Assembly (NCBI GenBank): GCA_001004105.1
Contig: LCQK01000003.1
Span: 46,805-110,804 of the forward strand
Length of the DNA: 64,000 nt
Direction: 5' to 3'
Source of the DNA: Candidatus Jorgensenbacteria bacterium GW2011_GWB1_50_10
Lineage (GTDB): Bacteria; Patescibacteriota; Minisyncoccia; UBA6257; GWB1-50-10
Made by a program: the position numbers and the translations under genes. The notes beneath the pieces were generated by a model. The model was not told where the DNA came from. It was given only the letters and a program-made list of their open reading frames with translations, and made no database searches. The stretch's first letter is position 1. Each line of letters begins with the position of its first letter. Shown here piece after piece: positions 5,973 through 55,267 of this stretch.

Positions 5973-6964
5973 TGGTAAATCCCGAAGCAAAACTTAATCC
6001 GAAGATTTTCGACAAAGACGTGGAAATGAAACCGACGCGGGACGGGTATGGCGATGGTCTGGTTTTGGCTGCTGACCATAATCCTAACGTGGTCGCGCTC
6101 TGCGCCGATTTGACGGAATCAACGCGAGCGGAGGCCTTTGCGAAGAAATATCCAGATAGGTTTTTTGAATGCGGGGTGGCCGAGCAGAATATGGCAACCA
6201 TTGCCGCGGGCCTTGGCATCTCCGGGAAAATTCCCTTCATTTCTTCTTACGCGACTTTTTCGCCGGGCCGGAACTGGGAGCAGATTCGGACGACGATTGC
6301 CTACAACGACTCCAACGTGAAAATCGCCGGGCATCACGCCGGCGTCTCGGTGGGACCGGACGGCGCGACTCACCAGGCAACGGAAGACATCGCCATCATG
6401 CGCGCGATGCCCAACATGAAAGTTTTCGTGCCATGCGACGCGATTGAGGCAAAAAAACTGGTGGTCGCCTCCGCGAAAATATGGGGGCCGGTGTATATGC
6501 GTTTCGGCCGGGAGAAAAGCGCGGTTATCACGACCGCAAGAACCCCCTTTACGCCTGGCAAGGCGGAAATATTTTGGGAATCAAAAGGAAAAATCCAATG
6601 CGCGATTATCGCCTGCGGGATACTGGTCAAGAACGCACTTCTTGCGGCGAAAGAACTGGAGGAGGAAGGCATAAAAACTATTGTTATCAACAACCACAGC
6701 ATCAAGCCGATTGACGAGCAGAAAATCATTGAAGCGGCGGAAAAAGCCGGGGCAGTCGTCATAGTGGAAGAACATCAGGTCTCAGGCGGTTTGGGCGGGG
6801 CGGTAGCCGAAGTTTTGGCAAAACATGCCCCCACGCCCATTGAATTCGTGGGCATGCAGGACACTTTCGGTGAATCGGGCCCGCCCCATGAACTCATTGA
6901 GAAATACGGGATGGGAGTGAGAGACATAAAAGCGGCAGTTAGGCGTGTCATCAAGAGAAGATGA
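5972..6964 (+). CDS. transketolase, C-terminal (pyrimidine-binding) subunit
   Basis: Homology pattern of transketolase Pyr and C-terminal domains; overlaps upstream subunit stop (ATGA-like junction). Confidence 0.9.
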   Translation: MVNPEAKLNPKIFDKDVEMKPTRDGYGDGLVLAADHNPNVVALCADLTESTRAEAFAKKYPDRFFECGVAEQNMATIAAGLGISGKIPFISSYATFSPGRNWEQIRTTIAYNDSNVKIAGHHAGVSVGPDGATHQATEDIAIMRAMPNMKVFVPCDAIEAKKLVVASAKIWGPVYMRFGREKSAVITTARTPFTPGKAEIFWESKGKIQCAIIACGILVKNALLAAKELEEEGIKTIVINNHSIKPIDEQKIIEAAEKAGAVVIVEEHQVSGGLGGAVAEVLAKHAPTPIEFVGMQDTFGESGPPHELIEKYGMGVRDIKAAVRRVIKRR

Positions 6965-13498: not shown

Positions 13499-14482
13499 AT
13501 GAAAATTCAATTGAGCCATAAATTCGAAGATATTATTTCACTGGAAAATCTTTTGGAAGCATGGCGAGAATTTTTGCGCGGCAAGAGAAATAAAAGAGAC
13601 GTTCAGGAATTCTCATCGCGTTTAATGGATAACATTCTATTACTTCACAGCGAACTTCGCAATAAAACCTACAAGCACGGGAAGTACGAAGCCTTTAACA
13701 TCTCCGACCCCAAACCGAGAAACATCCACAAAGCCGCCGTCCGCGACCGCCTACTTCATTACGCTATTTACAGGGTTTTATATCCGTTTTTTGATAAGGT
13801 ATTCATCGCCGATTCTTTTTCCTGCCGTTTGGGAAAAGGGACGCACAGAGCCATCAACCGCTTTAGAACTTTTGCTTATAAAGTGAGTAAAAATAATACC
13901 AAAACCTGCTGGGTTTTAAAGTTGGATATTAGGAAATTCTTCGCGAGTATTGACCATGAAATTTTGATAAAAATTCTTGAGGAATACATACCCGACCAAG
14001 ACATTATCTGGTTGCTGAAGAAAGTGATAGAAAGTTTTTATTCGACCGAACCCGGCAAGGGCCTGCCTTTAGGCAATTTAACCTCCCAGCTTTTAGTAAA
14101 TGTTTACATGAACAAGTTTGACCAATTTGTGAAACACAAGTTCAAGGCCAAGTATTACGTGAGATACGCCGATGATTTTGTGATTGTGTCGAAAAACGGA
14201 ATATGGCTTGAAAGTTTAATTCCGAGAATCAGCGAATTTCTAAACAGAGAATTGAAGTTAAAACTTCACGACGATAAGATATTCATTAAAACTTTAGCTT
14301 CGGGAGTAGATTTCCTTGGCTGGGTTCACTTTCCGGATTACCGAGTTCTGCGAACCACGACCAAAAGAAGAATGTTTAAAAGAATCAAAGAACATCCCGC
14401 GCCGGAAACAATAAATTCTTATTTGGGATTATTAAGGCACGGGAACGCTTATAAATTAAAAAGAAAAATTATTGCTGAATAA
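13499..14482 (+). CDS. DGR reverse transcriptase
   Basis: RT motifs incl. YADDFV; motif 4 LGNLTSQ (I/LGxxxSQ hallmark of DGR RTs); 327 aa without maturase/endonuclease domains. Confidence 0.9.
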
Positions 14483-14498
14483 TTTTTTTTGTGTTTTA

Positions 14499-15242
14499 AT
14501 GGCGTTTATGGAAGCTAGTATTAGCAAGATAATTTTAGAGATTCGGGCGGGCACGGGCGGGGACGAGGCCTCGCTTTTTGCCGGCGATTTGGCGCGGATG
14601 TATCAGAGGTTTGCCGCCCGGCGGGGCTGGAAATTCTCGACGCTCGATGCGAGCGAGTCCGGCGCGCGCGGCTATAAGACGTTCATCGCGGAGATCGGCG
14701 GCCCGGGCGTCTACGAGGCATTGAAGAACGAATCCGGCGTGCACCGGGTGCAGAGAGTGCCGGATACCGAACGGGGCGGCCGGGTGCATACCTCAACCGT
14801 ATCGGTCGCGGTTTTACCCGTAGTGGAAACCAAGGATTTTCAAATTAAAGAAAGCGATTTGGAAGTGACTTTCTCCCGCGCCGGCGGTCCCGGCGGCCAG
14901 AACGTGAACAAAGTGGAAACTGCGGTTCGAATCACCCATAAACCCACCGGCGTTGTCGTAGGTTCCAGGGAAGAACGGAGCCAGCACGCCAATCGCGAGA
15001 AAGCGATGGAGGTCTTGCGGGCCAAGCTTTACGAGGCGCAGAAAGAACAGCAAGTGGGGTCGGTTGCGGAGTTGCGGAGAGGGCAGATCGGCTCGGCCGG
15101 ACGGGCGGAGAAGGTAAGGACATATAATTTTCCGCAGGATAGAATTACAGATCACAGAGTAAGTAAAAAATGGAGTAATATTGAAAAGATATTAGAAGGT
15201 AATCTTGACCCAATCATACAGGCATTTTTGAAAGTCAATTAA
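14499..15242 (+). CDS. prfA: class I peptide chain release factor, RF1-like, lacking N-terminal domain 1
   Basis: [12 protein letters not shown]..., RVQRVPDTE (PxT-type), GGQ motif [28 protein letters not shown]; begins where RF1 domain 2 begins; stop TAA just upstream of the ORF; 3' end is AT-rich and duplicated downstream. Confidence 0.8.
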
Positions 15243-18120: not shown

Positions 18121-18135
18121 TTTTTTAGTTGTCCC
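18121..18135 (+). other. 5' half of 16S processing stem (TTTTTTAGTTGTCCC), complementary to 19783-19797
   Basis: 15-nt perfect complementarity bracketing the 16S gene, as expected for an RNase III processing helix. Confidence 0.55.
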
Positions 18136-18167
18136 AATTTATTTTGAATTTGGAAAGCCAAATTCTT

Positions 18168-19651
<1,484 letters not shown>

Positions 19652-19782
19652 TATTCTCTTCAGAGAGAGTAATAGTCGATTGCAAGATTGCTGACTGCAG
19701 GGTTCGTAATTCAGAATTCTGCAATGAGCAATTAGCAATAAAATTAGAGGTGTTAGTCGTGGAGCCTGAAGTCACGACCTTG

Positions 19783-19797
19783 GGACAACTAAAAAAG
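19783..19797 (+). other. 3' half of 16S processing stem (GGGACAACTAAAAAA)
   Basis: Reverse complement of 18121-18135. Confidence 0.55.
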
Positions 19798-19981
19798 TTT
19801 TTAATGAAAAGAAAGCGAGAATACCCTCGCTACCGTTCGCTCGCCCAGCGAGCTCGCTCACTTGCACTCTCGCCTCGCTCGTCCCGCCAAGCGGGACACC
19901 GTGCCCGCTCGGCTCAAGAGCGGCGCTCGAATATTCTCGCTTTCTTTTGCGTGGGGCAGGAAGGAATAGTATAATAATGTT

Positions 19982-22405: not shown

Positions 22406-24124
22406 ATGATAAACCTCCCTCCCGAAAAATTGAAAGATATTTTGGTAAAGCAGGGGCTTATTGACCCCGCTCTTTTTGATAATCTTCAAATTGAATCCCA
22501 GAGAAAAAGGCAAGACCTCGCGGATATTCTCATCTCGCAGGGCTTGGTCAATAAAGATTACCTTTATCTTCTAATCGCCCGGGCGCTTGGCGTGGAACGG
22601 GTTAATCTGGGAGTGATGAAAATAGACGAAAACATCCTTCGTTTGATTCCTGAAGACGCCGCCCGGCGCCGAAATGTGATTGTCTTCGGCCGGGAAGCCG
22701 ACGGCAGATTTCAAGTGGCGATGGATAACCCAACCGATTTAGAAACCATTGATTTTCTCCAGCTTCGTTTGGGCGGGCCCGTGAAACCGTATCTTGCGAC
22801 TGACGAAGATTTAAACCGCGGTTTTTCGCTTTACGAAAAACGCCTCACCCAGGATTTCAAGAAAATAATTGAGGAGAGTGTCAAAGAGTCGCTGCGCTCC
22901 AAAGCCAAGGGCGATTTAAAAGAAGCGGCCTCCGATTTGCCGATCGTCGCCATCGTTGACAATCTGATGGCTTACGCGCTCTCTTCCCGCGCTTCGGACA
23001 TTCACTTTGAGGTTTTAGACGATGGAGTTTTGGTTCGCTATCGGATTGACGGTGTGCTCCACGAGGTTATCAGGATGCCGAAGGAAATCCACGCTGCCAT
23101 TGTCGCCCGCATAAAGATTTTGGCAAGCCTGCGCGTTGACGAGCACTACCGCCCCCAAGACGGCCGCTTCCGCCATAAAATCGGCGACGAATTAGTGGTG
23201 GATGTCCGCGTCTCCATCATCCCAACTTTTTACGGCGAAAAGGTTGAGCTGCGGCTTCTAGCTGCCGCCCAGAAACCCCTATCGCTTTCCGAAATCGGCG
23301 CCTCCGAAGACACGGTAAAGGTTATTCGGGAAGCCATTAAAAAAAGCTACGGAATGGTTTTAATTTGCGGTCCGACTGGTTCCGGTAAAACGACCACGCT
23401 GTACTCCATTATGAACATTTTAAATAAGCCAGACGTGAACATCATTACCGTTGAAGACCCGATTGAGTACGACATGCGCTACGTAAATCAAGTGCAGGTG
23501 AATGTCCAGGCTGGCATTACTTTTGCCTCCGGCCTGCGTTCTCTTTTAAGACAGGACCCGAACATCATTATGGTCGGCGAAATCCGCGACTCGGAAACCG
23601 CCAACATCGGCGTACAGGCGGCCCTGACCGGCCACCTGATGCTTTCTAGTTTGCACACCAATGATGCCCCGACCGCCGTGCCGCGGCTTATGGATATGGG
23701 TATCCCACCGTTTCTCGTGGCCGCAGTTTTGAATGCCGTGAGCTCCCAACGCTTGGCCCGCCGGATTCATTTGGAGTGCATTGAATCATACGCGCCCGAG
23801 GCAAGCGTTCGTGCATCCATCAGCAAAACTCTAGAGGAAATCGGCGCCGACCAGAGCCAAGTCAGAATCCCCAAGATATTTTATCGGGGCCGGGGCTGCG
23901 CCGCCTGTAATCATTCCGGTTATTACGGCCGCATAGGTCTCTTTGAAACTTTAGACGTCACCGAAAACGTGAGGAAAATCATTATTGACAGGAATTTTAG
24001 TTTGGACAATTTGCGGAAGGTCGGTCGCGAAGAGGGGATGACGACGATTTTTGAAGACGGTTTGCGGAAGGTGGAGCGCGGCTTAACAACCATCGAAGAA
24101 TTATTTAGAGTTATAAGAGAGTAA
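22406..24124 (+). CDS. pilB: type IV pilus assembly ATPase PilB (GspE family)
   Basis: N-terminal GspII_E domain, Walker A GPTGSGKTTTLY, Asp box, His box, tetracysteine motif CAAC... Confidence 0.95.
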   Translation: MINLPPEKLKDILVKQGLIDPALFDNLQIESQRKRQDLADILISQGLVNKDYLYLLIARALGVERVNLGVMKIDENILRLIPEDAARRRNVIVFGREADGRFQVAMDNPTDLETIDFLQLRLGGPVKPYLATDEDLNRGFSLYEKRLTQDFKKIIEESVKESLRSKAKGDLKEAASDLPIVAIVDNLMAYALSSRASDIHFEVLDDGVLVRYRIDGVLHEVIRMPKEIHAAIVARIKILASLRVDEHYRPQDGRFRHKIGDELVVDVRVSIIPTFYGEKVELRLLAAAQKPLSLSEIGASEDTVKVIREAIKKSYGMVLICGPTGSGKTTTLYSIMNILNKPDVNIITVEDPIEYDMRYVNQVQVNVQAGITFASGLRSLLRQDPNIIMVGEIRDSETANIGVQAALTGHLMLSSLHTNDAPTAVPRLMDMGIPPFLVAAVLNAVSSQRLARRIHLECIESYAPEASVRASISKTLEEIGADQSQVRIPKIFYRGRGCAACNHSGYYGRIGLFETLDVTENVRKIIIDRNFSLDNLRKVGREEGMTTIFEDGLRKVERGLTTIEELFRVIRE

Positions 24125-24130
24125 AATTTT

Positions 24131-25342
24131 ATGCAATATCATTACATCGCATCGCAGCCGGACGGCAAGGTGTCTGAAGGTGACGTTGACGCCAAGGACG
24201 TTGCCGAAGTCCTGACGTATCTTACCTCGCATGGGCTTCGGCCGGTTTCCGTAAAGCCGATTGCGCAAATTTCCAAAAAGAAAAGGTTGGGTCTTTTTGG
24301 CGGGACCATTAATCTAACCGACCAGATATTCCTCTCAAAATATCTGGCGCTGATGCTCAAAATCGGCACAAGCTTATTGCAAGCTATTAATATCTTGGTT
24401 GAAGATTTTCAGAAATCGTCCGTGCGGGCTTTTTTAGTGGAAATCCGCTCCAACCTTGAAAAGGGCCGACCCTTTCATACAACCTTCGCCAAATATCCGA
24501 AAATCTTCAGCCAGGTCTACATTAATCTGGTGAAAGCCGGCGAGGCCTCCGGCAACCTGGAAAATGTTTTTGAAAACCTGACGGCATCTCTCTCTAAAGA
24601 AAAAATGCTCAAAGACCAGATGCGGAGCGCGCTCGTTTACCCGATTTTGCTTCTTGTTACTTCCGCACTGATTTTGGTGTTTCTCGTCACCTTTGCCCTG
24701 CCGAAAATAGCCGGCGTTTTTTTGGAATCGGGTTTTGAGCCGCCTCTTTTTTCAAGAGTTGTTTTTAGTATCGGCCTTTTCTTCGGCAAGTTCGGGATTC
24801 TTGTGATAGCTGCCGTCTTCGGCGGTGCGATTGCGCTTGTTGCGGCCTACCGTTCCTTGCTTTTGTTCAAAAAATTCGTCACCTCCGTCATAAGTGAAAT
24901 CCCCGTCATTAAAGACATTATCAGAAAAATTGCCCTCCAGCGTTTTGCCGCTACCCTTGCATCGCTCATTAAAGCCGGCGTGCCATTAACCAATGCTCTT
25001 GAAATTACTGCTGATGCCGCTGGCAACATTGAGTTGAAACAGGCGCTTTTGCGGATTTCTCGGGAAGGATTAATGAAAGGGCTTACCGTGGGCGATGCCT
25101 TTAAAAGGGAACCATTTTTCCCGCGAACCGTCGTTAATTTAGTCGCTATTTCCGAAAAAGCCGGTCATATTGAAGAGGTTTTGGAAACGCTTGCTGATTT
25201 CTACACTTCGGAAATTGATAGTTCCTTAAAGACGCTTGTTTCATTCCTCGAGCCCGCTCTTCTTCTTGTTATCGGTTTTATAATTGGCTTGATTGCCCTT
25301 GCTATAATAGTGCCTATTTACCAGCTTACCACCCAATTCTAA
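24131..25342 (+). CDS. pilC: type IV pilus inner-membrane platform protein PilC (GspF family)
   Basis: Two T2SS-F repeats, 403 aa. Confidence 0.9.
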   Translation: MQYHYIASQPDGKVSEGDVDAKDVAEVLTYLTSHGLRPVSVKPIAQISKKKRLGLFGGTINLTDQIFLSKYLALMLKIGTSLLQAINILVEDFQKSSVRAFLVEIRSNLEKGRPFHTTFAKYPKIFSQVYINLVKAGEASGNLENVFENLTASLSKEKMLKDQMRSALVYPILLLVTSALILVFLVTFALPKIAGVFLESGFEPPLFSRVVFSIGLFFGKFGILVIAAVFGGAIALVAAYRSLLLFKKFVTSVISEIPVIKDIIRKIALQRFAATLASLIKAGVPLTNALEITADAAGNIELKQALLRISREGLMKGLTVGDAFKREPFFPRTVVNLVAISEKAGHIEEVLETLADFYTSEIDSSLKTLVSFLEPALLLVIGFIIGLIALAIIVPIYQLTTQF

Positions 25343-26430
25343 TGAGGGGCTTTACTCTTATAGAAGTTTTAATAACGGTCGCAATTATTACAGCCGTTTC
25401 CGCGGCCGGTTATGTCGCGTTTTCCAAGTTCAAAGGTTCGCAAGCCGTTGAGCTCACAATGAACGAAATTACGGCCGTCATAAAGGACGTCCAAAAAAGA
25501 GCAGTGACACAGCAGGACGGCAAGCAATGGGGGCTCCGTTTCACTAATTCAACGTCAACCACGCACAGCTATCAGGTTTGGAGCGGTCCGAGCTATGCTT
25601 CGGGAACGATTAGCAGGACCTATTACCTCGGTCGCGGCACGCTCTTCGGCAACCCCGCCGACGATCTGAATGTAGACGAAATTTTCTCGGCGATAAGCGG
25701 GAAGCTCTTGGAGACAAGAGTCATTTCTTTAATAAATCGAAGAAAAGATGGTGTTGTCGGCGACATAATTCTTACTTCCCGGGGCGCGATTACAACGAGA
25801 AAAGAGAGCGGTCTTGTCGGCTATTGGCATTTTGACGAGAGTACAGCAACAACGACTTATGACGCTTCGGGGTTTGCCAATGCCGGCACGCTCACCAACG
25901 GTCCGGCATGGCAATCGGCGTCTAATTGCAAGGCGGGGACATGTTTGAGTTTTGACGGGACGAATGATTATGTGAATGTGATTGATTCAGCCTCACTCGA
26001 TATCACTGGCGCAATCACTGTTAGCGCTTGGGTATACGCGGATAGTTACCCCTCTACTTATCCAACGGTAGTGGCAAAAGGAAACTCCGCAAGCGCTTGG
26101 GAGCTTGACGTGAAGAATGATGGAACGATCGAATGGGAAGGGTTTATCGGTGGTACTCAAAGGATTTGCAATGGTGGCTCATTTAACCTTAACCAGTGGG
26201 TTTATATTGTAGGCCTATTTGATGGTAGCGACATGAAAATATTCGTTAATGGTTCAGAGGTGAAGTCATGTTCTTTCCCAGGGGTGTTAGGTACAAATAA
26301 TTCTGCCTTGGAAATCGGTTCCAGAACCAATGGAGGCGCCGTTTGGGACGGTTTTATTGATGGAGTCCGTATCTACAACAGCGCCTTGAGCGCCCAGGAA
26401 ATTTTGAATTTATATAATGATTTAAAATAA
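25342..26430 (+). CDS. prepilin-type N-terminal cleavage/methylation protein (minor pilin) with LamG-like domain
   Basis: MRGFTLIEVLITVAII...; LamG pattern GLVGYWHFDEST...LSFDGTNDYVNV...ITVSAWVY...VRIYNSALSAQEI. Confidence 0.8.
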   Translation: MRGFTLIEVLITVAIITAVSAAGYVAFSKFKGSQAVELTMNEITAVIKDVQKRAVTQQDGKQWGLRFTNSTSTTHSYQVWSGPSYASGTISRTYYLGRGTLFGNPADDLNVDEIFSAISGKLLETRVISLINRRKDGVVGDIILTSRGAITTRKESGLVGYWHFDESTATTTYDASGFANAGTLTNGPAWQSASNCKAGTCLSFDGTNDYVNVIDSASLDITGAITVSAWVYADSYPSTYPTVVAKGNSASAWELDVKNDGTIEWEGFIGGTQRICNGGSFNLNQWVYIVGLFDGSDMKIFVNGSEVKSCSFPGVLGTNNSALEIGSRTNGGAVWDGFIDGVRIYNSALSAQEILNLYNDLK

Positions 26431-26434
26431 ATTT

Positions 26435-27700
26435 ATGAGAAGGTTCTGGCGCGATATAAAAGGACAAAGTTTGATTGAAGTTTTAATCGGTTTGGCGATT
26501 GGTGCCGTTTTAATCGGCGCTGCGAGTTTGGGCGTTACTTTCATGCTTCGCTCTAGCGCCGCCAGTCAGAATGTTCAGATTGGAACGGGTCTTGCCCAAG
26601 ATTTGGTGGACAAGGCTCGTTCCGTATCGGCCGCCAAGTGGCAGGATATTTACCACCTCACCAAAGGAACGAGCACATCTTATTTTGTAAATGCTTTTGG
26701 CACGCAGCTTGTTGTTGTAGAAGGTCAGGAAGGCGTTATCAGCAATGAAAATACGAATGGTTTGGTCGGTTACTGGAAGTTTGATGAGGCGACGAGTACG
26801 GCGACTACTACGACCTTCGACGCTTCCGGAAAGTCCAACCACGGCACTCTCACGAGCGGCGTTTCAAGAGCTACCTCAACTTGTAAAGTTAGTTATTGTT
26901 TGGATTTTGATGGAGTGGATGATTATGTTGATTCCGGAAGCGGTTCAAGTTTGGATATTACTCAAAATGTAACACTCGTGTCGTGGGTTAAGTTGGATAC
27001 TTATACCTCGGGCGGCACTAACACTGACAGGGCAAGCATTGTGCAGAAGACGGGGCAATATTATATGACAGTGAATTCAGCAAACGGAACACTCGACGCC
27101 TTCTTTGGTGGGGTCACTGGTAGTCATACGCCTTCAAATTCTACAGTTTCATTGAATCAGTGGATGCACACCGCAATCACTTATGATGGTGCAAATATAA
27201 AATGGTATATAGACGGTGTTTTAGACAAAACATCGGCCGCGACCGGTACCATTACTAGTGATCCCCGAAGCGTTCGTATCGGCGGGGAACCGGCTTTTGG
27301 TCGTTTTCTGAACGGTTCCATTGACGAAGTCCGCGTCTACAACCGCGCTCTTTCCGCCGACGAAATCCAGCGGCTTTGGAATTCCGTGCCTTTCACGCAT
27401 TACTTTAACGTTGGAAACGTAAACCGCGATACGAACGGCAATATTGTTTCCTCCGGCGGAAATGAAGATCCTTCAACCCAAAAAATCACGGTGACTGTGC
27501 AGTGGCCGGGGAGCGGCAGTAATGTCGGTCAGATTCAAATTGTTGATTATTTAACCCGCTGGCAGAACCAAGTGTTTCAGCAAAGCGATTGGCTGGGTGG
27601 TTCTGGCCAAATAGGCCCGATTACCTTACCGAATTCTAAATACGACAGCGCGACGAGCGTTTCCAACCCCGCCGGTTCAATCAGAATTCAAGGACTATAA
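26435..27700 (+). CDS. pseudopilin-like protein with LamG-like domain
   Basis: KGQSLIEVLIGLAIGAVL N-terminus; GLVGYWKFDEAT...LDFDGVDDYVD...VRVYNRALSADEI. Confidence 0.75.
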   Translation: MRRFWRDIKGQSLIEVLIGLAIGAVLIGAASLGVTFMLRSSAASQNVQIGTGLAQDLVDKARSVSAAKWQDIYHLTKGTSTSYFVNAFGTQLVVVEGQEGVISNENTNGLVGYWKFDEATSTATTTTFDASGKSNHGTLTSGVSRATSTCKVSYCLDFDGVDDYVDSGSGSSLDITQNVTLVSWVKLDTYTSGGTNTDRASIVQKTGQYYMTVNSANGTLDAFFGGVTGSHTPSNSTVSLNQWMHTAITYDGANIKWYIDGVLDKTSAATGTITSDPRSVRIGGEPAFGRFLNGSIDEVRVYNRALSADEIQRLWNSVPFTHYFNVGNVNRDTNGNIVSSGGNEDPSTQKITVTVQWPGSGSNVGQIQIVDYLTRWQNQVFQQSDWLGGSGQIGPITLPNSKYDSATSVSNPAGSIRIQGL

Positions 27701-27845: not shown

Positions 27846-29288
27846 CTACAATGTAACTACAAAACTCCCACTCGGGATATTGGTGATTTCCTGCGGTAAG
27901 ATAAAGCGCAGGTTTTTCTCCTTTTGTTTTTCAGGGAGGTAGGTGTCGGTCAAGAACATTACGGTTTGGGCCGGCGAGCCGATTTTGCGGATGTCGTGGC
28001 CACCGGTGTCTACGACCAGATATTTTGCCGTTGCCGGGGGCAAAGCATTTATCTCTTCGGCAATTTGAACATATTTCGCGTTGAATGCTTCCGCCACGTC
28101 CGCCCGTTTCGCCCAATCAAGGAAGTAAGTTTGGTAGGCGTTTAGAATAAGTAAAATAAGAAAGAGAAAACTGATTGCTTTAAGTAAACGGCTGTTAGTT
28201 TCCGTTTTCAAAAATTCGTAGAGCGAGGCGCCGCCCAAAGCCGCAATTATGAAAACCGGGGGAGCCATAAGAAACGAGCGGAGCGCGTGCGGCAGGCCTT
28301 CGTTTGAAACAACAACGGGAAGAGTGGCAACGATGAGCCAACTGAACAAAATCCAAAAAGCGAAGCGGCCCGGCATTTTTTTGTTGAGGAGACCATAAAG
28401 CAATCCCAGAGCGAAAAGAATTCCAACTGGCCAATAAAGAAGCGGCTCACCCGGAAGGTTGTGCCGCGGGTTCCAGTCGCCCGCAAAATTGAACATGCCG
28501 GCGGTCTTTAGGATATTCAACCCCAAATCTTTTAGCGGAGTAAGGGAATTAAAAATTGAGATTTCACTCGTGCGGCCGAAGAAGTCCTGTGGATGGCTCC
28601 AAAAATAAATTCCGAGCGGCAGAGAAATAAGAACGGCCGCAACAACAAAGATTGAACCGATGCGCAAACTTTTCCGCCAGCCGAATATTTTTCCGCAGAA
28701 AACAAGAATCAAGATGACGAGAAGCGGGGTAGCCCGGTAAGCGATGTAGGAATACATTCCCAAGCTGTAAATAATTCCGGCCAAGGCCGGCAGCCACTTT
28801 GTTTGCCGCCTGAACGACAAGAGGAGAAAATACAATCCCCATGTCAGGAAAAATGGCGCCATGATTGCCCGAAAGCCAACGCGAGAGAAATTTATATGCC
28901 AGAAACTCGTAGCGATTAGAAAAGTAGCGAGTAGCGCGATTCGTTTATCCTCAAATAGCTCTCTCGTTAAAAAATAGATTCCCAAGACGGTTAAGATGCC
29001 GAAAATCGCGCTCGGCAACCTTAATACCCACGGTTCATTCGCACCAAAAATTTTTAAGAACAGCGCTTGAATATTGATGAAAAGCCCTTCCCGGCCGTTG
29101 TTTTCTTCATAGAAAACCTTGAATCCGCCGGCTGGCGGAGCCGCTTGCAGCGCTTGTACCGCGTTATTGCCGTTCATTGCTTCATCGGAGTAAAGGCCAG
29201 GCGGAAGGTTTTTAAAGTCATAAAACCTAAAGAAAGAAGCAATAAGGACAATCAAAAGAATCAGGAAAATTTTTGAACGAGAGTGCAT
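27846..29288 (-). CDS. GT-C fold glycosyltransferase, PMT_2/ArnT-like (family 39/83) membrane protein
   Basis: N-terminal FRFYDFKNLPPGLYSDEAMNG motif typical of ArnT/PMT family, more than 10 TM helices. Confidence 0.8.
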   Translation of the reverse strand: MHSRSKIFLILLIVLIASFFRFYDFKNLPPGLYSDEAMNGNNAVQALQAAPPAGGFKVFYEENNGREGLFINIQALFLKIFGANEPWVLRLPSAIFGILTVLGIYFLTRELFEDKRIALLATFLIATSFWHINFSRVGFRAIMAPFFLTWGLYFLLLSFRRQTKWLPALAGIIYSLGMYSYIAYRATPLLVILILVFCGKIFGWRKSLRIGSIFVVAAVLISLPLGIYFWSHPQDFFGRTSEISIFNSLTPLKDLGLNILKTAGMFNFAGDWNPRHNLPGEPLLYWPVGILFALGLLYGLLNKKMPGRFAFWILFSWLIVATLPVVVSNEGLPHALRSFLMAPPVFIIAALGGASLYEFLKTETNSRLLKAISFLFLILLILNAYQTYFLDWAKRADVAEAFNAKYVQIAEEINALPPATAKYLVVDTGGHDIRKIGSPAQTVMFLTDTYLPEKQKEKNLRFILPQEITNIPSGSFVVTL

Positions 29289-29309
29289 TTGTTTTATAAT
29301 TATATCATT

Positions 29310-29726
29310 ATGGAAACAAAGAACTTTGACGAAAATCTCGAAAAGAGTTTATCACGGCTGGGGAAACAAATAGAGACCGAGAGCCGAGTGCCGGAGGCAA
29401 AAGAGCTCCACGAAAAAGAATTGGTTAAACTTTCCTTGAAATCCATTGCCGAAGAATCAAAAAGCGAACGGTCGACCGAAGAAGAATCCGCTCCGCCGGT
29501 CCGGGAACCCAAAGCCACTCTTCTTCCTTCTTATCTTCAAAATGACGGCGTTCCGGAGAACGTCAAAACCGAAATTGAGGGACTGATAAACCTTGTTTTT
29601 GCGGAAGGCCTGGAAAAAGCGCTCGTTGAGGCGGAGCGGCACGGCCCGTTTGTGGAAGACGCTTTTCACGACGCACTGGTGGACAAACTTCTGCCCGAAC
29701 TGAAAAAGAGGGGAATCTTAAGCTGA
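29310..29726 (+). CDS. hypothetical acidic protein (138 aa)
   Basis: ATG 9 nt after TATAAT; ORF table GTG start at 29283 overlaps divergent gene start. Confidence 0.45.
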   Translation: METKNFDENLEKSLSRLGKQIETESRVPEAKELHEKELVKLSLKSIAEESKSERSTEEESAPPVREPKATLLPSYLQNDGVPENVKTEIEGLINLVFAEGLEKALVEAERHGPFVEDAFHDALVDKLLPELKKRGILS

Positions 29727-29727
29727 A

Positions 29728-32076
29728 ATGTTTTATTTCATTTTAATAGCCGTTTGCGCCGCTCTTTTAATTTGGGGCGGCTGGTTTCTAAGAAAGCGTT
29801 TAAAATTACGCCATCACCTTGATGTTTTGGGGATGAAGCTGTATCTTGTGCGTCTCCCGAAGAGCGGAAAAGAAGGCAAGGACTTGAAACAGGAAATAAA
29901 TTTGTCCGAGCAGCTTTTTACGGCCCTCGCGAGTTTCGGTAAGCCATTTGTTTTTGAAATCGCCGTGCCGTACGTGGGCGAAGAGATTCATTTTTTTGTC
30001 GGCGTTCACCGCTCTTTCAGCGAGGCGTTAGTGCGCCAAATTCAAGCTATTTGGCCCGACGCCGATGTCCGCCCCACCGACGATTACAATATTTTCAATT
30101 ACTCGGGCCGGACCTTGGGCGCGAGCGTGGTTTTGAGCGAGAGATTTGTTTTGCCGGTCCGGACTTATGTCGAAGTCGGCGCTGACACGTTCCTGCCCTT
30201 TTTGGGCGCTTTCTCCAAAATCAGCGAGCTCGGCGAGGGCGGCGCCATTCAGTTCGTGATTCGGCGGGCCGAAAGAAGCCGTTATAAAAAAGAAATAAAT
30301 TCCGCTCTGAAGTTTTTGAAGAAAGGCGGCAGTTTGAGTGAAATTCTCAGTCACCCCCTTTCGCTTTCTTTGGAAGATGTTGGTAAAGTGCTCCACGGCG
30401 AAGAAAAATTAAAAAAAGGAAATTATATTCTCGATGAAGCGAGCATTAAAACGCTTGAAATCAAGCTCGCCAAACAGCTTTTTGAAGTGAATGTCAGGAT
30501 TTTTGCTTCGGGACCGAGCAATTTCAAGGCAGAGGAGATTTTCGGGGGACTCGCCGCCGGCTTTTCTCAATTTGGAGCGCTCCAACGTAATTCTTTTAAA
30601 GTCGTTCAGCCGAAAAACATCAAAGGTCTGGTTCACGAGTTTTCTTTCCGCGAATTTAATTCTAACGAAGCAATGGTTCTTACAAGCGAAGAATTGGCAA
30701 GTATTTTTCATTTCCCGACGGCTTTTACTGAAACGCCGAAAATCAAGGAATTGAAAGCTCGGGAGGCGACGCCGCCGGCGAACCTTCCCAAAAACGGCGT
30801 GATGTTGGGCCTTGCTTCTTTTCGGGGCGGGAGCGAGGAGGTAAAAATCACCGACGACGATCGGCGGCGCCATCTTTACCTTATCGGCCAGACCGGCACC
30901 GGCAAATCCAATTTGCTTCTTAATATGGTCTCCGACGACCTGCGGAACGGGAAGGGACTCGCTGTTTTGGACCCCCACGGCGATTTGGTGGAGGAAATTT
31001 TAGGGCTTATGCCGAGCGGAAGAATGAAGGATGTCGTCGTTTTTGACCCGGGCGACATTGAGCGGCCTCTGGGTTTAAACATGATTGAATACAATTTCAG
31101 CCGGCCGGAGGAGAAGACGTTTATCGTGAATGAAATGCAGAATATTTTCAACAAGCTTTTTACGGCTGAAACAATGGGACCGATGTTCGAGCAGTATATG
31201 CGCAACGCCCTGTTGCTTTTGATGGAGGATATGCAGAGCGACCCGGCGACCTTAATGGAAATTTCACGGGTTTTCACCGACTCCCTTTTTCGGAAAACAA
31301 AACTCACTCGGACCAAAAATCCGGCGGTCTATGATTTTTGGGAAAAGGAAGCAGTTAAAGCCGGCGGCGAGGCGGCACTCGCCAATATGACTCCCTACAT
31401 CACTTCCAAGTTCAATAATTTTACGGCGAACGATTTTATGCGCCCCATCATCGGCCAGGTTAAATCGGCTTTTAACTTCAGAGAATTGATGGACGACGGC
31501 AAGATCTTGCTCGTCAATTTGTCCAAAGGCAGAATCGGCGACATCAACGCCAATCTCTTGGGTATGATTATTACCGGCAAGATTTTGATGGCCGCGCTCT
31601 CAAGGGTGGACGTCCCCGAAGACAAAAGAAAAGATTTTTATCTCTACATCGACGAGTTCCAGAATTTCACGACCGATTCCATTGCCGTGATTTTGTCGGA
31701 AGCGCGGAAATACCGGCTGAACCTCGTGATTGCCCACCAGTTTATCGGCCAGCTTACCGAGAAAATAAGGGATGCGGTTTTTGGCAACGTCGGGTCGCTC
31801 GTTGCTTTCCGGGTCGGGGCGCAGGATGCCGAATTTCTAACGAAGCAGTTTGCGCCCGTCTTCAGCGAGCAGGACCTTTTGAACATTGATAATTTCAACG
31901 CCTACGTTAAACTTCTTATAAATGGGGAGACCTCAAAACCCTTTAATATCAAAACCGTGCCGGCGCCGAAGGGGGAAAGAAACCTAGCAGAGCGCATTAA
32001 AGAAAATTCCAGAAATTTTTACGGTCGGGGGCGCGCCGAGGTGGAAGAAGAAATATACAAGCGATTGAGAACTTAA
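29728..32076 (+). CDS. VirD4/TraG/TraD-like coupling-protein ATPase (fused form: N-terminal membrane/DUF region plus C-terminal TraG-D_C-like ATPase)
   Basis: Walker A GQTGTGKSN, Walker B FYLYIDEFQNF, IAHQFIGQL / VGSLVAFRVG motifs; N-region homologous to 60165-61556 and C-region to 62106-63587. Confidence 0.8.
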   Translation: MFYFILIAVCAALLIWGGWFLRKRLKLRHHLDVLGMKLYLVRLPKSGKEGKDLKQEINLSEQLFTALASFGKPFVFEIAVPYVGEEIHFFVGVHRSFSEALVRQIQAIWPDADVRPTDDYNIFNYSGRTLGASVVLSERFVLPVRTYVEVGADTFLPFLGAFSKISELGEGGAIQFVIRRAERSRYKKEINSALKFLKKGGSLSEILSHPLSLSLEDVGKVLHGEEKLKKGNYILDEASIKTLEIKLAKQLFEVNVRIFASGPSNFKAEEIFGGLAAGFSQFGALQRNSFKVVQPKNIKGLVHEFSFREFNSNEAMVLTSEELASIFHFPTAFTETPKIKELKAREATPPANLPKNGVMLGLASFRGGSEEVKITDDDRRRHLYLIGQTGTGKSNLLLNMVSDDLRNGKGLAVLDPHGDLVEEILGLMPSGRMKDVVVFDPGDIERPLGLNMIEYNFSRPEEKTFIVNEMQNIFNKLFTAETMGPMFEQYMRNALLLLMEDMQSDPATLMEISRVFTDSLFRKTKLTRTKNPAVYDFWEKEAVKAGGEAALANMTPYITSKFNNFTANDFMRPIIGQVKSAFNFRELMDDGKILLVNLSKGRIGDINANLLGMIITGKILMAALSRVDVPEDKRKDFYLYIDEFQNFTTDSIAVILSEARKYRLNLVIAHQFIGQLTEKIRDAVFGNVGSLVAFRVGAQDAEFLTKQFAPVFSEQDLLNIDNFNAYVKLLINGETSKPFNIKTVPAPKGERNLAERIKENSRNFYGRGRAEVEEEIYKRLRT

Positions 32077-32078
32077 AA

Positions 32079-32681
32079 ATGAAGAGAAAGGACCTATATT
32101 TAGCGGCTGGCATCGGTTTTATCTTCGGTGTTTTGCTGCTTTTGCCCCTGAAAAACATCGGGTTTGCCGTCACGCCGAAGCTGATTTTTCTTTCGGTTTT
32201 CGGATTTGCGGTTTTTGCTCCCTTCGCACTCTTCGTTCTTTACGTTGCAAGCCGTTTTATTCCGGCTCTTTACCAATTCGGCAAATTTGCGGCCGTAGGC
32301 GCCTTAAACACCGTGATTGATTTGGGGGCTCTGAATTTTTTGATAATCTTGACCGGCATTTCAACGGGCATTTATTATAGTTCTTTCAAGGCCATCTCGT
32401 TTCTTGCGGCAGTCGGAAACAGTTATTTCTGGAACAAGTTCTGGACTTTTGGAAGCGCGAGACCAGCTTCGGCCAAGGAATTCAGCCGCTTTATTTTTTT
32501 CACCTTCATTGGGCTGATCATCAACGTCGGAGTAGCAACCCTTATTGTTGACATTGCCAGTCCGGTTTTCGGCGCACCCGCCAAACTAATGGCCAATGTC
32601 GGCGCAGTGGTCGCGACCGTTGTTTCGCTTCTCTGGAATTACTTCGCCTATAAGAGGTTTGTTTTTAAATCAACGCCATGA
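32079..32681 (+). CDS. GtrA-family membrane protein
   Basis: FAAVGALNTVIDLGALNFLI signature, 4 TM. Confidence 0.8.
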   Translation: MKRKDLYLAAGIGFIFGVLLLLPLKNIGFAVTPKLIFLSVFGFAVFAPFALFVLYVASRFIPALYQFGKFAAVGALNTVIDLGALNFLIILTGISTGIYYSSFKAISFLAAVGNSYFWNKFWTFGSARPASAKEFSRFIFFTFIGLIINVGVATLIVDIASPVFGAPAKLMANVGAVVATVVSLLWNYFAYKRFVFKSTP

Positions 32682-33406
32682 AGCCATTTCTTTCGGTTAT
32701 AATTCCGGCTTACAATGAGGAAAAAAGGCTTCCCGCCACGTTGATTGACGTTGATAGATATTTAAGAAGCGCAGACTTCTCCTGCGAAATTATTGTGGTT
32801 GACGACGGTTCTAAAGACGGCACAGCGGAAATTGTTAAAAAATTTGAAGATTCTATTGGAAACCTGCGCCTGATTAAAAACGAAGAAAATCACGGCAAGG
32901 GACACGCGGTGAAACAGGGAATGCTCGCGGCCGAAGGCGAATATCGGCTTTTTATGGATGCCGATAATTCCACTTCGGTAGACCAATTCCAAAAAATTCT
33001 ACCTTTCCTAAAAGAAGGGTACGAGGTTATTATCGGTTCCCGTGATATTAAAGGAGCAGAGCTTGTGCCGCCGCAGCCTCTTTACAAAAGAGCATTGGGT
33101 AATATCGGTAATTTAGTTATTCAAATTCTTCTTCTTTGGGGGATTTGGGATACGCAGTGCGGTTTTAAATGTTTTAGCGGTAAAGCCACCCAAAGGATTT
33201 TTAGTTTAGTCACGATTGAGCGGTGGGGGTTTGACGTTGAGGCTTTGGCGCTGGGGAAGAAAATGGGTTATAAAATAAAAGAAGTGCCAGTGAGGTGGGT
33301 TAACAATCCTTATTCACAAGTAAAATTAAGCGGATATCTCACGTCTCTTTGGGATGTTTTCAAAATAAGGTTTCGGCTTTGGAAAGGGGATTATAAATAT
33401 GAGTAA
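32678..33406 (+). CDS. family 2 glycosyltransferase (Dpm1/GtrB-like polyprenyl-phosphate sugar synthase)
   Basis: SVIIPAYNEE...VVDDGSKDGT...DAD motifs. Confidence 0.9.
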   Translation: MKPFLSVIIPAYNEEKRLPATLIDVDRYLRSADFSCEIIVVDDGSKDGTAEIVKKFEDSIGNLRLIKNEENHGKGHAVKQGMLAAEGEYRLFMDADNSTSVDQFQKILPFLKEGYEVIIGSRDIKGAELVPPQPLYKRALGNIGNLVIQILLLWGIWDTQCGFKCFSGKATQRIFSLVTIERWGFDVEALALGKKMGYKIKEVPVRWVNNPYSQVKLSGYLTSLWDVFKIRFRLWKGDYKYE

Positions 33407-34397
33407 TAACTATTCAGAACTTAGGCAAGATTTGGTCTCCGGCGACTGGATTTTGGTTGCGCCAAAGCGGGGCGCGAAACCCCACACTTTTTTAAGAAAG
33501 AAAGCGCGCTCGCCGGCCCCGCTCAAGAATTGCCCCTTCGAAAACATTCTAAAGACACACAAACCAATTTTTGTTTATAACGGCGGCGGGAAAAATGATA
33601 GTTGGGAAGTTGTGATCGTTGAAAATAAATATCCGGCGGTGGTTCATAAGAACGTTTGCGCCAAAAGTTTTCGTCACGGCATTTATTCCCTGGTCGGCGG
33701 CGTTGGCCACCATAACCTTATTGTTACGCGGGACCATAACCGTAACTTTGCGGCCCTAACGTCTTTGGAAGCCAATCAAGTGTTCCAAGTTTTCCGCGAC
33801 CGCTATTTAATGCTTCTTAACGATTCTTGTCTTGCTTATATCTTAATTTTTCATAATTGGGGGCCGGATGCCGGCGCCACCATTTATCATCCCCATTACC
33901 AGCTTATTGCCGTCCCTGTAGTGCCGCCCGACGTTCGGCATTCTCTTACCGGTTCTTCAAATTACTTTAAAAAATACAAGCACTGCGTTCATTGCGATAT
34001 GATTAAAGCCGAAAAAAAAGAAGGGAAGAGGATTGTTTATGAAAACCGAGGAGCCGTTATTATTGCTCCTTTTGTTTCTCGCGAGCCTTTTGAGCTCCGG
34101 ATTTTCCCCAAAAAACATTCACCCTATTTCGAAAATATTCTTGATACCGAATTGGAAGACGTTGTCTCCGCTCTTCAGCTCGCTTTGAAAAGAATTGAGA
34201 AAAAATTAGGCAATTCCGATTACAACTTTTTCATCCATACGGCGCCCGTCAAGGAAAAGGAGAAATACCGCCATTACCATTGGCATATCGAAGTTATCCC
34301 CAAAACGAACATTTCCGCAGGTTTCGAGCTCGGCACCGGCATCGAGATAAACGTCGTTGATCCGGACGCGGCCGCAAGAATCTTGAGGACAAGATAA
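33399..34397 (+). CDS. galT: galactose-1-phosphate uridylyltransferase family (HIT-like) protein
   Basis: N-terminal Cys motif, HPHYQ histidine triad-like active site; 332 aa. Confidence 0.7.
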   Translation: MSNNYSELRQDLVSGDWILVAPKRGAKPHTFLRKKARSPAPLKNCPFENILKTHKPIFVYNGGGKNDSWEVVIVENKYPAVVHKNVCAKSFRHGIYSLVGGVGHHNLIVTRDHNRNFAALTSLEANQVFQVFRDRYLMLLNDSCLAYILIFHNWGPDAGATIYHPHYQLIAVPVVPPDVRHSLTGSSNYFKKYKHCVHCDMIKAEKKEGKRIVYENRGAVIIAPFVSREPFELRIFPKKHSPYFENILDTELEDVVSALQLALKRIEKKLGNSDYNFFIHTAPVKEKEKYRHYHWHIEVIPKTNISAGFELGTGIEINVVDPDAAARILRTR

Positions 34398-53503: not shown

Positions 53504-55267
53504 ATGTCAGAAACGAGAATTTGCCAGAATTGCAAGCAACAATTCACGATTGAGCCGGACGATTTCGCGTTTTATAAAAAGATAAGCGTCCCGCCACCGA
53601 CGTGGTGCCCGGAGTGCAGGTTAGTGAGAAGGTTAATTGTTCGTAATGAACGGAGTTTGTATAGAAGAATCTGTGATCTTTGTGGAAAAGAGAAAATAAT
53701 GATGTTTTATCCTCAAAGTCCTTTCAAGGTATATTGCTACGAATGTTGGTTTGGCGATAACTGGAATCCAATGGGGTATGGGAAAGAATATGACTTTTCA
53801 CAGCCCTTTTTCGAACAGTTTAGTGATTTGCTCCATGTGGTACCGAGGCCGGGGATTCTAAAACAAGGATTCGCTATTGAGAGTGAATACACCAACCGAG
53901 TCAGCGAAATTAGAAATTGTTATCTTATTTTTGGCTCAACAGCTAGCGAAAACTGTTTTTACGGTTCGTGGGTAAATGATTCTAAAGAATGCGTTGACTG
54001 TTACAACCTCGGCAAATGCGAAAGATGTTATGACTGCACCGATTGTGTCGGTTGCTATAACCTTCAGTACTCTCGTGACTGCCATAGTTGCAGTAATTCT
54101 TATTTTCTTTTGAATTGCCGCAACTGCGAGAGTTGCTTTGGTTGCACGAATCTCCGCAATAAAAGCTACTGTGTTTTTAATAAACAATACGGCAAGGAGG
54201 AATATCAAAAACTACTCGAGGAACACAATTTGAAAAGCTCAGCCGCTATCAAAAGACTCCAGTCCCGGTTCATTTCGGAGCGTTCCAAGCATATTGTGCC
54301 GTCAATAATCCAACATCACAGTACGGATGTAAGCGGTAACTGGATTGAAGAATCCAAGAATGTTCATTACAGCTTCAACTGCCGAAATGTCGAGGATGGT
54401 AAGTACGTACTGGCGGCAGTAATTGCAAAAGATGTAATGGATTATGCTCATTTCGGACGCGGCGTTGAACGTATTTATGATTCAATCAACATTGGCCGCC
54501 AAGCCTCATCCGTCTTTTTTAGCAATGAAAGCTGGGACCAATCTTCAAATTTGCAGTATTGCATGAATTGCCGAGGTTCACAGAACCTTTTCGGGTGCAT
54601 CGGAGTTCGTAACAAAAGTTACTGTATCTTGAACAGGGAATATACCAAAGAAGAATACGAGAAGCTGGTTCCCCGCATTATTGAGCACATGAATACTATG
54701 CCCTACGCCGACAAGAAAGATAGGGTATACAAGTACGGCGAATTTTTCCCGCCGGAAATAACGCCATTCGCTTATAACGAGTCCCTCTCCCAAGAATTTT
54801 TTCCTCTAACAAAAGAAAGAGCGTCAGAACTCGGGTACCGCTGGAAAGATGAAGAGAATCGGAGCTACAAGATAACTGTAAAAAATAACGAAATTCCTGA
54901 TACTATTCGACTTGTTTCCGACGCGATACTCGATGATGTCATTGGCTGCGAACATGGTGGAAAATGCAACGAACAGTGCACGACGGCTTTTAAAATTGTT
55001 CCTCAAGAGCTTAATTTTTATAGACAATTTAATATTCCCCTTCCAAATCTTTGTCCCAACTGCCGTCATTATCAGAGATTAAAACAAAGAAATCCCCTAA
55101 AGCTTTGGCACAGAAAATGTATGTGTGATTACCAGGTTTATAAAAATACGGTGAAGCACGTTCATCATCCGGAAGGAAAGTGCCCGAACGAATTTAAAAC
55201 GTCCTACGCCCCCGAGAGGCCGGAAATCGTCTACTGCGAGCAGTGTTATAATTTCGAGGTAGTATGA
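53504..55267 (+). CDS. cysteine-rich repeat protein (587 aa, many CxxC motifs, Zn-ribbon-like N- and C-terminal modules)
   Basis: N-term CQNCKQQFTIEPDDFAFYKKISVPPPTWCPECR; central CVDCYNLGKCERCYDCTDCVGCYNL...CRNCESCFGCTNLRNKSYC; internal duplication (NKSYCVFNKQYGKEEYQKL / NKSYCILNREYTKEEYEKL); C-term ...LCPNCRHYQRL; TATAAT 12 nt upstream. Confidence 0.6.
   Translation: MSETRICQNCKQQFTIEPDDFAFYKKISVPPPTWCPECRLVRRLIVRNERSLYRRICDLCGKEKIMMFYPQSPFKVYCYECWFGDNWNPMGYGKEYDFSQPFFEQFSDLLHVVPRPGILKQGFAIESEYTNRVSEIRNCYLIFGSTASENCFYGSWVNDSKECVDCYNLGKCERCYDCTDCVGCYNLQYSRDCHSCSNSYFLLNCRNCESCFGCTNLRNKSYCVFNKQYGKEEYQKLLEEHNLKSSAAIKRLQSRFISERSKHIVPSIIQHHSTDVSGNWIEESKNVHYSFNCRNVEDGKYVLAAVIAKDVMDYAHFGRGVERIYDSINIGRQASSVFFSNESWDQSSNLQYCMNCRGSQNLFGCIGVRNKSYCILNREYTKEEYEKLVPRIIEHMNTMPYADKKDRVYKYGEFFPPEITPFAYNESLSQEFFPLTKERASELGYRWKDEENRSYKITVKNNEIPDTIRLVSDAILDDVIGCEHGGKCNEQCTTAFKIVPQELNFYRQFNIPLPNLCPNCRHYQRLKQRNPLKLWHRKCMCDYQVYKNTVKHVHHPEGKCPNEFKTSYAPERPEIVYCEQCYNFEVV

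Follow-up and report, generated by a model that had tools for sequence, protein, structure and literature searches.

Fused and split DUF8128-containing ATPases of the coupling-protein type in a Candidatus Jorgensenbacteria genome

This analysis concerns two sets of genes for ATPases resembling the type IV coupling proteins (T4CPs) of conjugation systems. Both lie in a stretch of 64,000 nucleotides, here called the window, from the patescibacterial (candidate phyla radiation, CPR) genome of Candidatus Jorgensenbacteria bacterium GW2011_GWB1_50_10 (contig LCQK01000003.1, positions 46,805 to 110,804 of the forward strand; G+C content 49%). In one set a DUF8128 domain and the ATPase are fused in a single gene, and in the other set, the split operon, they are encoded by separate genes. 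An earlier note made from the letters alone had described four open reading frames (ORFs), and all four were recovered at their positions, on the plus strand and with lengths of 782, 463, 174, and 493 amino acids (aa). The 782-aa protein is 100% identical to the hypothetical protein UY26_C0003G0252 of Candidatus Jorgensenbacteria bacterium GW2011_GWA1, and the 174-aa protein is UY26_C0003G0227. The features of the two loci, numbered from the first letter of the window, are the following:

29283-29726, plus strand: p147, small acidic soluble protein; ORF conserved directly upstream of the fused gene
29728-32076, plus strand: fused 782-aa protein; transmembrane helix, DUF8128, and VirD4/TrwB-type P-loop ATPase
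29728-29796, plus strand: N-terminal transmembrane anchor (aa 1-23), then RKRLKLRHH; hydropathy scan, with a helix at 2-34 in the structure model
29830-30762, plus strand: DUF8128 domain (about aa 35-345); precomputed PF26449 on the identical database protein and profile homology to the split N protein
30760-30798, plus strand: inter-domain junction REATPPANLPKNG (aa 345-357); alignments with both split halves
30886-30909, plus strand: Walker A motif GQTGTGKS (aa 387-394); invariant among 41 fused homologues
31651-31665, plus strand: Walker B motif DEFQN (aa 642-646); alignment with the split ATPase and fused homologues
31729-31818, plus strand: VIAHQFIGQL and GNVGSLVAFRVG blocks (aa 668-697); alignments
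59139-60158, plus strand: 339-aa DNA-binding-type protein, first gene of the split operon; two helix-turn-helix (HTH) Pfam domains
60165-61556, plus strand: stand-alone DUF8128 protein, 463 aa; PF26449 (precomputed, L096)
61557-62081, plus strand: 174-aa protein with one transmembrane helix and a conserved C-terminal domain; separate family, no Pfam assignment
62106-63587, plus strand: stand-alone soluble ATPase, 493 aa; Pfam T4CP families
62295-62318, plus strand: Walker A motif GKSGVGKS of the split ATPase; alignment with the fused protein
63039-63053, plus strand: Walker B motif DEFQN of the split ATPase; alignment with the fused protein

The homology between the two sets was determined separately for the ATPase and the N-terminal halves. 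The ATPase halves were aligned by BLASTP over aa 345-765 of the fused protein and aa 11-436 of the 493-aa protein (37% identity, E-value 1e-89) and share the Walker A (GQTGTGKS/GKSGVGKS), Walker B (YIDEFQN/YVDEFQN), IAHQ.GQL, and GNVGS..FRVG blocks, as the earlier note had proposed. The N-terminal halves are collinear (fused aa 4-357 with aa 51-454 of the 463-aa protein) at 20% identity and an E-value of 4e-6. According to the earlier note, a loss of the homology between the N domains in profile alignments would speak against it, and the homology persisted. Using N-domain profiles from about 60 homologues per type, the split-N hidden Markov model (HMM) recovered the fused protein of the window with an E-value of 3.6e-15 and the fused-N HMM recovered the split N protein with 4.8e-17, and an hhalign comparison of the two profiles gave 99.6% probability (E-value 2.7e-24, 291 columns). 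Both proteins are also annotated with PF26449, which is DUF8128, in precomputed records.

The point at which the two halves part was located from the same alignments. The junction REATPPANLPKNG of the fused protein has a counterpart in each split protein: GPPSGLPIFG, the tail at the C-terminus of the split N protein, and PPPPDLPVYG, with which the split ATPase begins, both align with it. A PPxxLPxxG consensus is kept at both split ends in about 60 homologues each, and P349, P350, L353, and G357 are at least 90% conserved over the fused and split sequences together. The split form breaks the protein exactly at the inter-domain junction, and each half retains a copy of that junction.

In the hydropathy scan, hydrophobic stretches were limited to aa 1-23 in the fused protein and to aa 19-69 (two transmembrane helices) in the split N protein, and the split ATPase has no hydrophobic segment. 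The remainder of the fused protein after its anchor would be cytoplasmic by the positive-inside rule. The N-terminal part had been described as a membrane domain, which fits these short segments only; the remaining ~330 aa of the N part are well predicted in the structure model as a soluble alpha/beta domain, and the modeled DUF8128 domain has a fold like that of the VirB4 N-terminal domain, a likeness that is structural only.

Sequence comparison indicates that the paralogy of the two forms is old. In a neighbor-joining tree of the ATPase domains, constructed along the lines the earlier note had suggested, a fused clade and a split clade are separate and the Bacillus plasmid proteins described below lie outside both; the tree is crude and carries no support values. 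The coexistence of a fused and a split paralog in one genome was confirmed, but it is not a peculiarity of this genome: both forms are widespread, and four or more other genomes also have the two together. For the fused family, database matches number more than 4,300, of which the best 120 are 59-79% identical to the protein of the window and labelled Jorgensen-, Brenner-, or Liptonbacteria or Paceibacterota, and the stand-alone DUF8128 family has 538 matches, the best 120 being 50-77% identical. A search with the DUF8128 profile returned 9,827 cluster representatives at E-values of at most 1e-3, a count inflated by the leakage of about 120 ATPase columns into the profile, and 1,284 at E-values of at most 1e-30; stand-alone lengths of about 420-480 aa and fused lengths of about 750-1,400 aa are both represented in the best 150 matches.

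The genomic context of the split form was surveyed in 80 species-representative genomes, in which gene order was judged as far as each contig extends. The order SecD, SecF, HTH protein, DUF8128 protein, 174-aa protein, and ATPase (then CutA) was constant in 80/80 species loci where the contig reaches. The HTH gene was found directly upstream of the DUF8128 gene in all of these loci that reach far enough, as well as in the distant loci L091 and L093. One distant lineage has SecD, SecF, a Sigma70_r4 protein, and DUF8128, then five intervening genes, and then the ATPase, and the distant locus L091 has the order HARE-HTH, DUF8128, ATPase, the 174-aa gene being absent. Because the distant split loci keep the HTH gene without the 174-aa gene, the former is the persistent partner and the latter a lineage-specific insertion.

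In the window the 339-aa HTH protein has a Sigma70 region 4 HTH at aa 16-63 (Pfam E-value 1.9e-13) and a HARE-HTH at aa 212-273 (E-value 4e-8), and its gene stops 6 nt ahead of the DUF8128 gene. The 174-aa protein is a separate membrane protein between the split halves, as had been claimed, and belongs to a family with one transmembrane helix in which W135, A137, H138, R141, N142, H146, T147, P148, G149, and F150 are invariant or nearly so. Within this set N142 and H146 do not vary at all and R141 is conserved at 90% or more, which gives the RNxxxH motif, a HEPN-type signature. Matches to HEPN_Swt1 were obtained for 9/42 family members (best E-value 0.019) and matches to DUF4145 and HEPN_Cthe2314 for one member each; since all of these are below threshold, the protein is here termed HEPN-like.

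The partner of the fused form is p147, whose true start is probably the ATG at 29310. It was found immediately upstream of the fused gene in 50/70 metagenome loci, in most of them with an overlap or no more than 15 nt away, and the p147 counts are lower bounds obtained with a single-sequence phmmer search. The C-terminal motif FxEDAFHDALxDKLxPELKKRGI is kept among relatives. No match to p147 was found in Pfam, NCBIfam, PADLOC, or PHROG, no hydrophobic segment was detected in it, and neither p147 nor the middle genes of the distant loci matched the HMM of the 174-aa family.

By sequence, the ATPase halves, in which the Walker A and B motifs are intact, are assigned to the coupling-protein branch. 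The Pfam model TrwB_AAD_bind scored 31.9 bits with the fused protein and 32.9 bits with the split ATPase (cut-off 20.5), T4SS-DNA_transf 22.0 and 34.5 bits (cut-off 20.1), and TraG-D_C 26.2 bits with the split ATPase, above its gathering cut-off; in the fused protein a weak TraG-D_C match covers aa 637-704. Matches by sequence to structures in the PDB were to TrwB and DotL. Among the phage orthologous groups, phrog_5156 (function unknown, 824 positions) aligned at its positions 77-807 with aa 72-779 of the fused protein (E-value 2.6e-72) and also matched the split ATPase (5.9e-56) and the split N protein (5.6e-11). The proteins belong to the FtsK/HerA superfamily. Canonical VirD4 proteins have two transmembrane helices directly ahead of the ATPase. 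In the fused protein the ATPase is instead preceded by a single transmembrane helix and the 330-aa DUF8128; relative to TrwB/VirD4 (PDB 1e9r), DotL (7ovb), and Cagbeta (8dol), a domain predicted to resemble the VirB4 N-terminal domain stands between membrane helix and ATPase or is encoded by a gene of its own.

Members of the same DUF8128-plus-ATPase family are also encoded by plasmids of Bacillus, Clostridium, Streptomyces, and archaea and by SPO1-like phages. A tblastn search identified 344 plasmid records (Streptomyces 111, Bacillus 95, Staphylococcus 26, Clostridium 19, plus haloarchaea and Sulfolobus), in 23 of which at least 80% of the fused protein was covered. The DUF8128 HMM derived from Patescibacteria matched the N-terminal part of the Bacillus plasmid proteins with E-values of 1e-15 to 1e-21, and the ATPase HMM matched these homologues as well. 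WP_345805471, from a 27.5-kb B. subtilis plasmid, has the same two-part architecture (tblastn over aa 85-747, 24-25% identity, E-value 1e-37). On that plasmid the homologue, annotated as a DUF87 protein of 885 aa, comes first, and the genes of a replication-relaxation protein, of conjugal transfer proteins, and of an 847-aa ATP-binding protein lie after it; on a 65-kb B. subtilis plasmid the homologue is followed by TcpD and TcpE genes. On a B. subtilis plasmid, a family member is thus the first gene of a conjugation operon of the Tcp/VirB4 type, beside the relaxase gene. A coupling-protein gene usually adjoins a relaxase gene. The Bacillus and Clostridium plasmid proteins are about 100 aa longer than the patescibacterial protein, and their genes adjoin the replication-relaxation gene, TcpD/TcpE-type genes, and the gene of the 847-aa protein, whereas none of these was found near the patescibacterial genes.

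Proteins of the same architecture were also identified by tblastn in 40 phage records, mostly of Bacillus phages; among them are SPO1 gp27.4, gp156 of phage G, and members from SP-10, Nachito, and D6E. SPO1 gp27.4 is homologous in the last third of DUF8128 and over the entire ATPase (BLASTP E-value 2e-18), and the DUF8128 HMM matched it with E-values of 1e-7 to 1e-9. Together with orf201 of phage 0305phi8-36 it has been described as the "coupling ATPase" of a proposed phage "DNA translocation operon", which is dispensable in the laboratory (Pathria et al., 2012; PMC3357382). Different from the patescibacterial loci, the SPO1 gene adjoins the nicking or relaxase-like gp27.3 and an actin-like partition protein. 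As no similarity was found between the patescibacterial HTH protein and gp27.3, a role of the HTH protein as a relaxase analogue is not supported.

The closest competitor, in our view an unlikely one, holds that these proteins are not coupling proteins but VirB4-type ATPases, the signature ATPases of type IV secretion systems (T4SSs), with a VirB3-like transmembrane segment fused on. Like VirB4/TrwK (PDB 7o42, 8rtd), they have an N-terminal domain followed by a C-terminal ATPase, and the folds of both domains are alike in the models. A total length of 782 aa is also typical of VirB4. A sequence-level VirB4 signature is lacking: CagE_TrbE_VirB and AAA_10 gave no match at E-values of at most 0.1 whereas the coupling-protein models above exceeded their gathering cut-offs, and in NCBIfam the VirD4-like families outscored the VirB4-like ones (CD1115 52 bits versus CD1110 15 bits, cut-off of the latter 325). 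Neighbors of the VirB3, VirB6, or VirB8 type were not found around either gene set by Pfam, in the window ORFs or in the loci of relatives. Moreover, the 27.5-kb B. subtilis plasmid carries its homologue beside a relaxase gene and has the 847-aa protein in addition, which its annotation suggests is the VirB4 of that plasmid, and neither the DUF8128 nor the ATPase HMM gave a signal with this 847-aa protein (E-values 0.2-0.5). The sequence profiles and the presence of a separate VirB4-like gene on the Bacillus plasmid therefore weaken the VirB4 reading.

To characterize the setting of the coupling-type ATPases, the window ORFs were screened with Pfam, and few were without any match. The content consists of sugar metabolism, ribosomal, UvrABC, Sec, RNA polymerase-neighborhood, cell-wall, and pilus genes. 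Relaxase and VirB-type domains had no Pfam match among the scanned window ORFs (the whole genome was not searched), in agreement with the expected absence of relaxase and T4SS structural genes, and the precomputed Pfam annotations of the related loci contained none either; the linkage to relaxase and mating-pair-formation genes that is characteristic of T4CPs was thus not seen in these ORFs and annotated loci. The split locus has UvrABC, SecD, SecF, and the HTH gene upstream and CutA downstream. The gene surroundings of both loci are those of housekeeping genes and not of mobile elements.

Taken together, the best-supported explanation, judged from the sequence comparisons, is that the fused and the split ATPase are two domesticated paralogs of the coupling-ATPase family of monoderm plasmids and phages. 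We give a probability of roughly 0.55 to the reading that both loci are chromosomal, relaxase-less descendants of one coupling-type ATPase family (T4CP-like, DUF8128 plus a VirD4/TrwB-type P-loop) and encode membrane-tethered motors. Both copies probably have a transport job other than conjugation. The homology calls of the earlier note were correct, and its functional interpretation was partly wrong.

Orphan coupling-type ATPases are already known in this phylum from a recent survey, which reports 5,713 VirD4-type T4CP homologues in 2,918 Patescibacteria genomes, about two per genome, of which 148 are near virB4, with relaxases being rare (Quinonero-Coronel et al., 2025; PMC12102498). The surveyed genes are chromosomal and VirD4-like, nearly always distant from virB4 and without a relaxase, and both loci of the window fit this description. 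The survey raises the exaptation of these homologues to another function as a possibility, and its retrieved passages do not mention fused and split types, a DUF8128 domain with a VirB4-like fold, partner genes, or relatives on plasmids and in phages. No paper with the term "DUF8128" turned up in a full-text search of the literature library.

Several observations weigh against the reading of the two loci as domesticated coupling-type motors. All NCBIfam conjugation models scored far below their cut-offs (SXT_TraD 40-50 bits with a cut-off of 366, conju_CD1115 52 bits with a cut-off of 250). SecD and SecF are as conserved as neighbors of the split genes as the HTH gene is, and synteny among relatives can persist without a functional link. 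According to the survey, the T4CP homologue of Ca. Southlakia epibionticum is non-essential for epibiotic growth, while T4SS genes are essential (PMC12102498); because the homologue is dispensable and the T4SS genes are not, a tight functional tie to the T4SS is doubtful.

If the reading as domesticated coupling-type motors holds, each system would form a membrane-tethered hexameric motor by analogy with TrwB and VirB4, and a ring of DUF8128 domains would dock the motor to partner proteins or the membrane, much as VirB4 is docked to VirB3 and VirB8 by its N-terminal domain. For the split system this would mean that the membrane-anchored DUF8128 protein recruits the soluble ATPase through non-covalent contacts. 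The ATPase would then move a substrate, most likely nucleic acid or nucleoprotein, given that the family has relatives on plasmids and in phages and that one partner gene is of the DNA-binding type, and the motor might either feed the monoderm-type T4SS that Patescibacteria encode at other loci or act alone. For the orphan coupling-type ATPases of this phylum, the two old types, the fixed partner genes, the VirB4-like N domain, and the kinship with plasmid and phage proteins offer concrete handles for experimental work. The natural split marks the domain boundary together with a conserved junction motif and is usable for interaction studies, and a VirB4-like N domain on a VirD4-like ATPase bears on the divergence of the two ATPase families of T4SSs.

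A bolder extension, which we consider improbable, is that DUF8128-type coupling ATPases are an evolutionary intermediate between VirB4 and VirD4, a T4CP in which a VirB4-like N-terminal domain has been retained, and that the two domesticated copies, served by separate adaptors (p147 for one, the HTH protein for the other), form T4SS-independent membrane translocons through which nucleic acid passes between the epibiont and its host or surroundings. As organisms dependent on other cells, Patescibacteria are described as having essential T4SSs and pili (PMC12102498; PMC12857230). If the extension were true, such translocons would be a core and so far unrecognized part of the reduced-genome lifestyle.

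An equally improbable account, favored by the earlier note, is that the ATPases are not conjugation proteins but competence motors that pull DNA in through or with type IV pili. The genes that bear on it lie upstream of the fused gene:

22406-24124, upstream of the fused gene: PilB (Pfam)
24131-25342, upstream of the fused gene: PilC (Pfam)
25342-26430 and 26435-27700, plus strand, upstream of the fused gene: two Laminin_G_3 pseudopilins
27846-29288, minus strand: PMT_2 glycosyltransferase, between the pilus genes and the fused gene

Both loci had been placed near type IV pilus genes. This holds for the fused gene, which lies 2 kb downstream of the cluster at 22406-27700, and not for the split locus, whose neighbors are SecD, SecF, the HTH gene, and CutA; no pilus gene was found in the 10 kb of the same genome past the window end, beyond the split locus. 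The arrangement of pilus genes and fused gene recurs in the closest relative (L004), a Laminin_G_3 (pseudopilin-type) protein is encoded near the fused gene in L005 and L006, and DNA import by related ATPases has a precedent in the archaeal Ced system, although only weak NCBIfam matches to CedB and CedD were obtained here. The linkage is rare across relatives: PilB was found within 9 kb upstream of the fused gene in 5/39 metagenome loci and a LamG pseudopilin upstream of it in 7/46, and PilB or PilC within 6 kb of the split operon in 0/80 species, so that the co-occurrence with pilB and pilC that the earlier note proposed to check is not conserved and DNA uptake through pili has no conserved genomic backing. 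In the window, the glycosyltransferase gene on the opposite strand separates the pilus genes from the fused gene, which is instead packed with p147, GtrA, GT2, and GalT-like genes. Mutation of ComEC ended natural transformation in Ca. Southlakia epibionticum while viability was kept (2025 review, PMC12857230); transformation in Saccharibacteria is ComEC-dependent, and the T4CP homologue is dispensable for growth (PMC12102498).

Two further readings are weaker still than the VirB4 reading. The first, which we regard as very unlikely, is an FtsK/SpoIIIE-like pump for DNA at the chromosome or septum, or another HerA-type housekeeping motor that became a core gene. It would agree with the fixed housekeeping surroundings of both forms, with the 59-79% identity of fused orthologues in other genomes to the protein of the window, with the superfamily membership, and with the FtsW and YceG genes 3.5 kb downstream of the fused gene, but this FtsW neighborhood is kept in only 6/80 loci and no FtsK_SpoIIIE Pfam match was found. 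The second and least probable, an anti-phage or anti-plasmid defence module of a HerA/DndH-like ATPase and a membrane HEPN-type effector in the split operon, would account for a PADLOC mad8 match (E-value 2.2e-17), several weak HerA matches, and the conserved RNxxxH residues of the 174-aa protein (R141, N142, H146), but defence islands are typically variable in position whereas the slot between SecDF and CutA is identical in 80/80 species loci, no nuclease, methylase, or Sir2 neighbor was found, the 174-aa gene is missing from a distant split locus, and the HEPN models all stayed below threshold, and since the loci are unlike defence islands the PADLOC matches are put down to shared ATPase ancestry.

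Some further observations were made around the two loci. At 32079-34397 (plus strand) the fused gene is followed, with 2-nt gaps or overlaps, by genes for GtrA and a GT2 glycosyltransferase and by a GalT/HIT-like gene; among 80 relatives, PMT recurs near the fused gene in 26/80 and GtrA in 24/80. A third Laminin_G_3 pseudopilin-type protein is encoded at 6961-8205 (plus strand) among sugar-metabolism genes, far from the PilB/PilC cluster, and all three Laminin_G_3 (concanavalin-like lectin) proteins have an N-terminal methylation motif.

After the split operon, about 10/80 related species have a third paralog of 596-644 aa that consists of the ATPase only (L029, L033, L043, L044, L052, L058, L068, L070, L076, and L083) and carries a C-terminal zinc ribbon, CxxCGK..PFEP..GRPVYCxxC. 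In the distant lineage represented by L093 (10365-11900) the split ATPase itself has a zf_Tbcl_2 domain. No third paralog is apparent in this genome, as none of the called genes in the 10 kb past the window end has an ATPase Pfam annotation. The large genes that follow the split operon in relatives were considered as ATPases and rejected; they form a zinc-finger paralog family. A 587-aa ORF of the window at 53504-55264 has a weak match to the treble-clef zinc finger zf_Tbcl_2, and homologues of it are present in 37/80 split loci of relatives. Just past the window end (L096, 11807-21482) there are five ORFs of 557-596 aa without a Pfam match that are similar in size to the 587-aa ORF.

Elsewhere in the window, a reverse-transcriptase ORF (RVT_1, 327 aa, 13499-14482, plus strand) runs into the beginning of a class-I release-factor ORF (14472-15242), from which some 95 positions at the start of the PCRF domain are missing. 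The RVT_1 ORF may be a retroelement inserted in or beside the release-factor gene; a group II intron was not among the Rfam matches at gathering thresholds, the only such match being the 16S rRNA. This complete 16S rRNA gene is located at 18166-19651 (plus strand; Rfam 1421 bits), and the ORFs listed at 18125-19974 are regarded as spurious because they overlap it. It is not followed by a 23S rRNA gene within the window, and the next gene after it is a response regulator at 19982.

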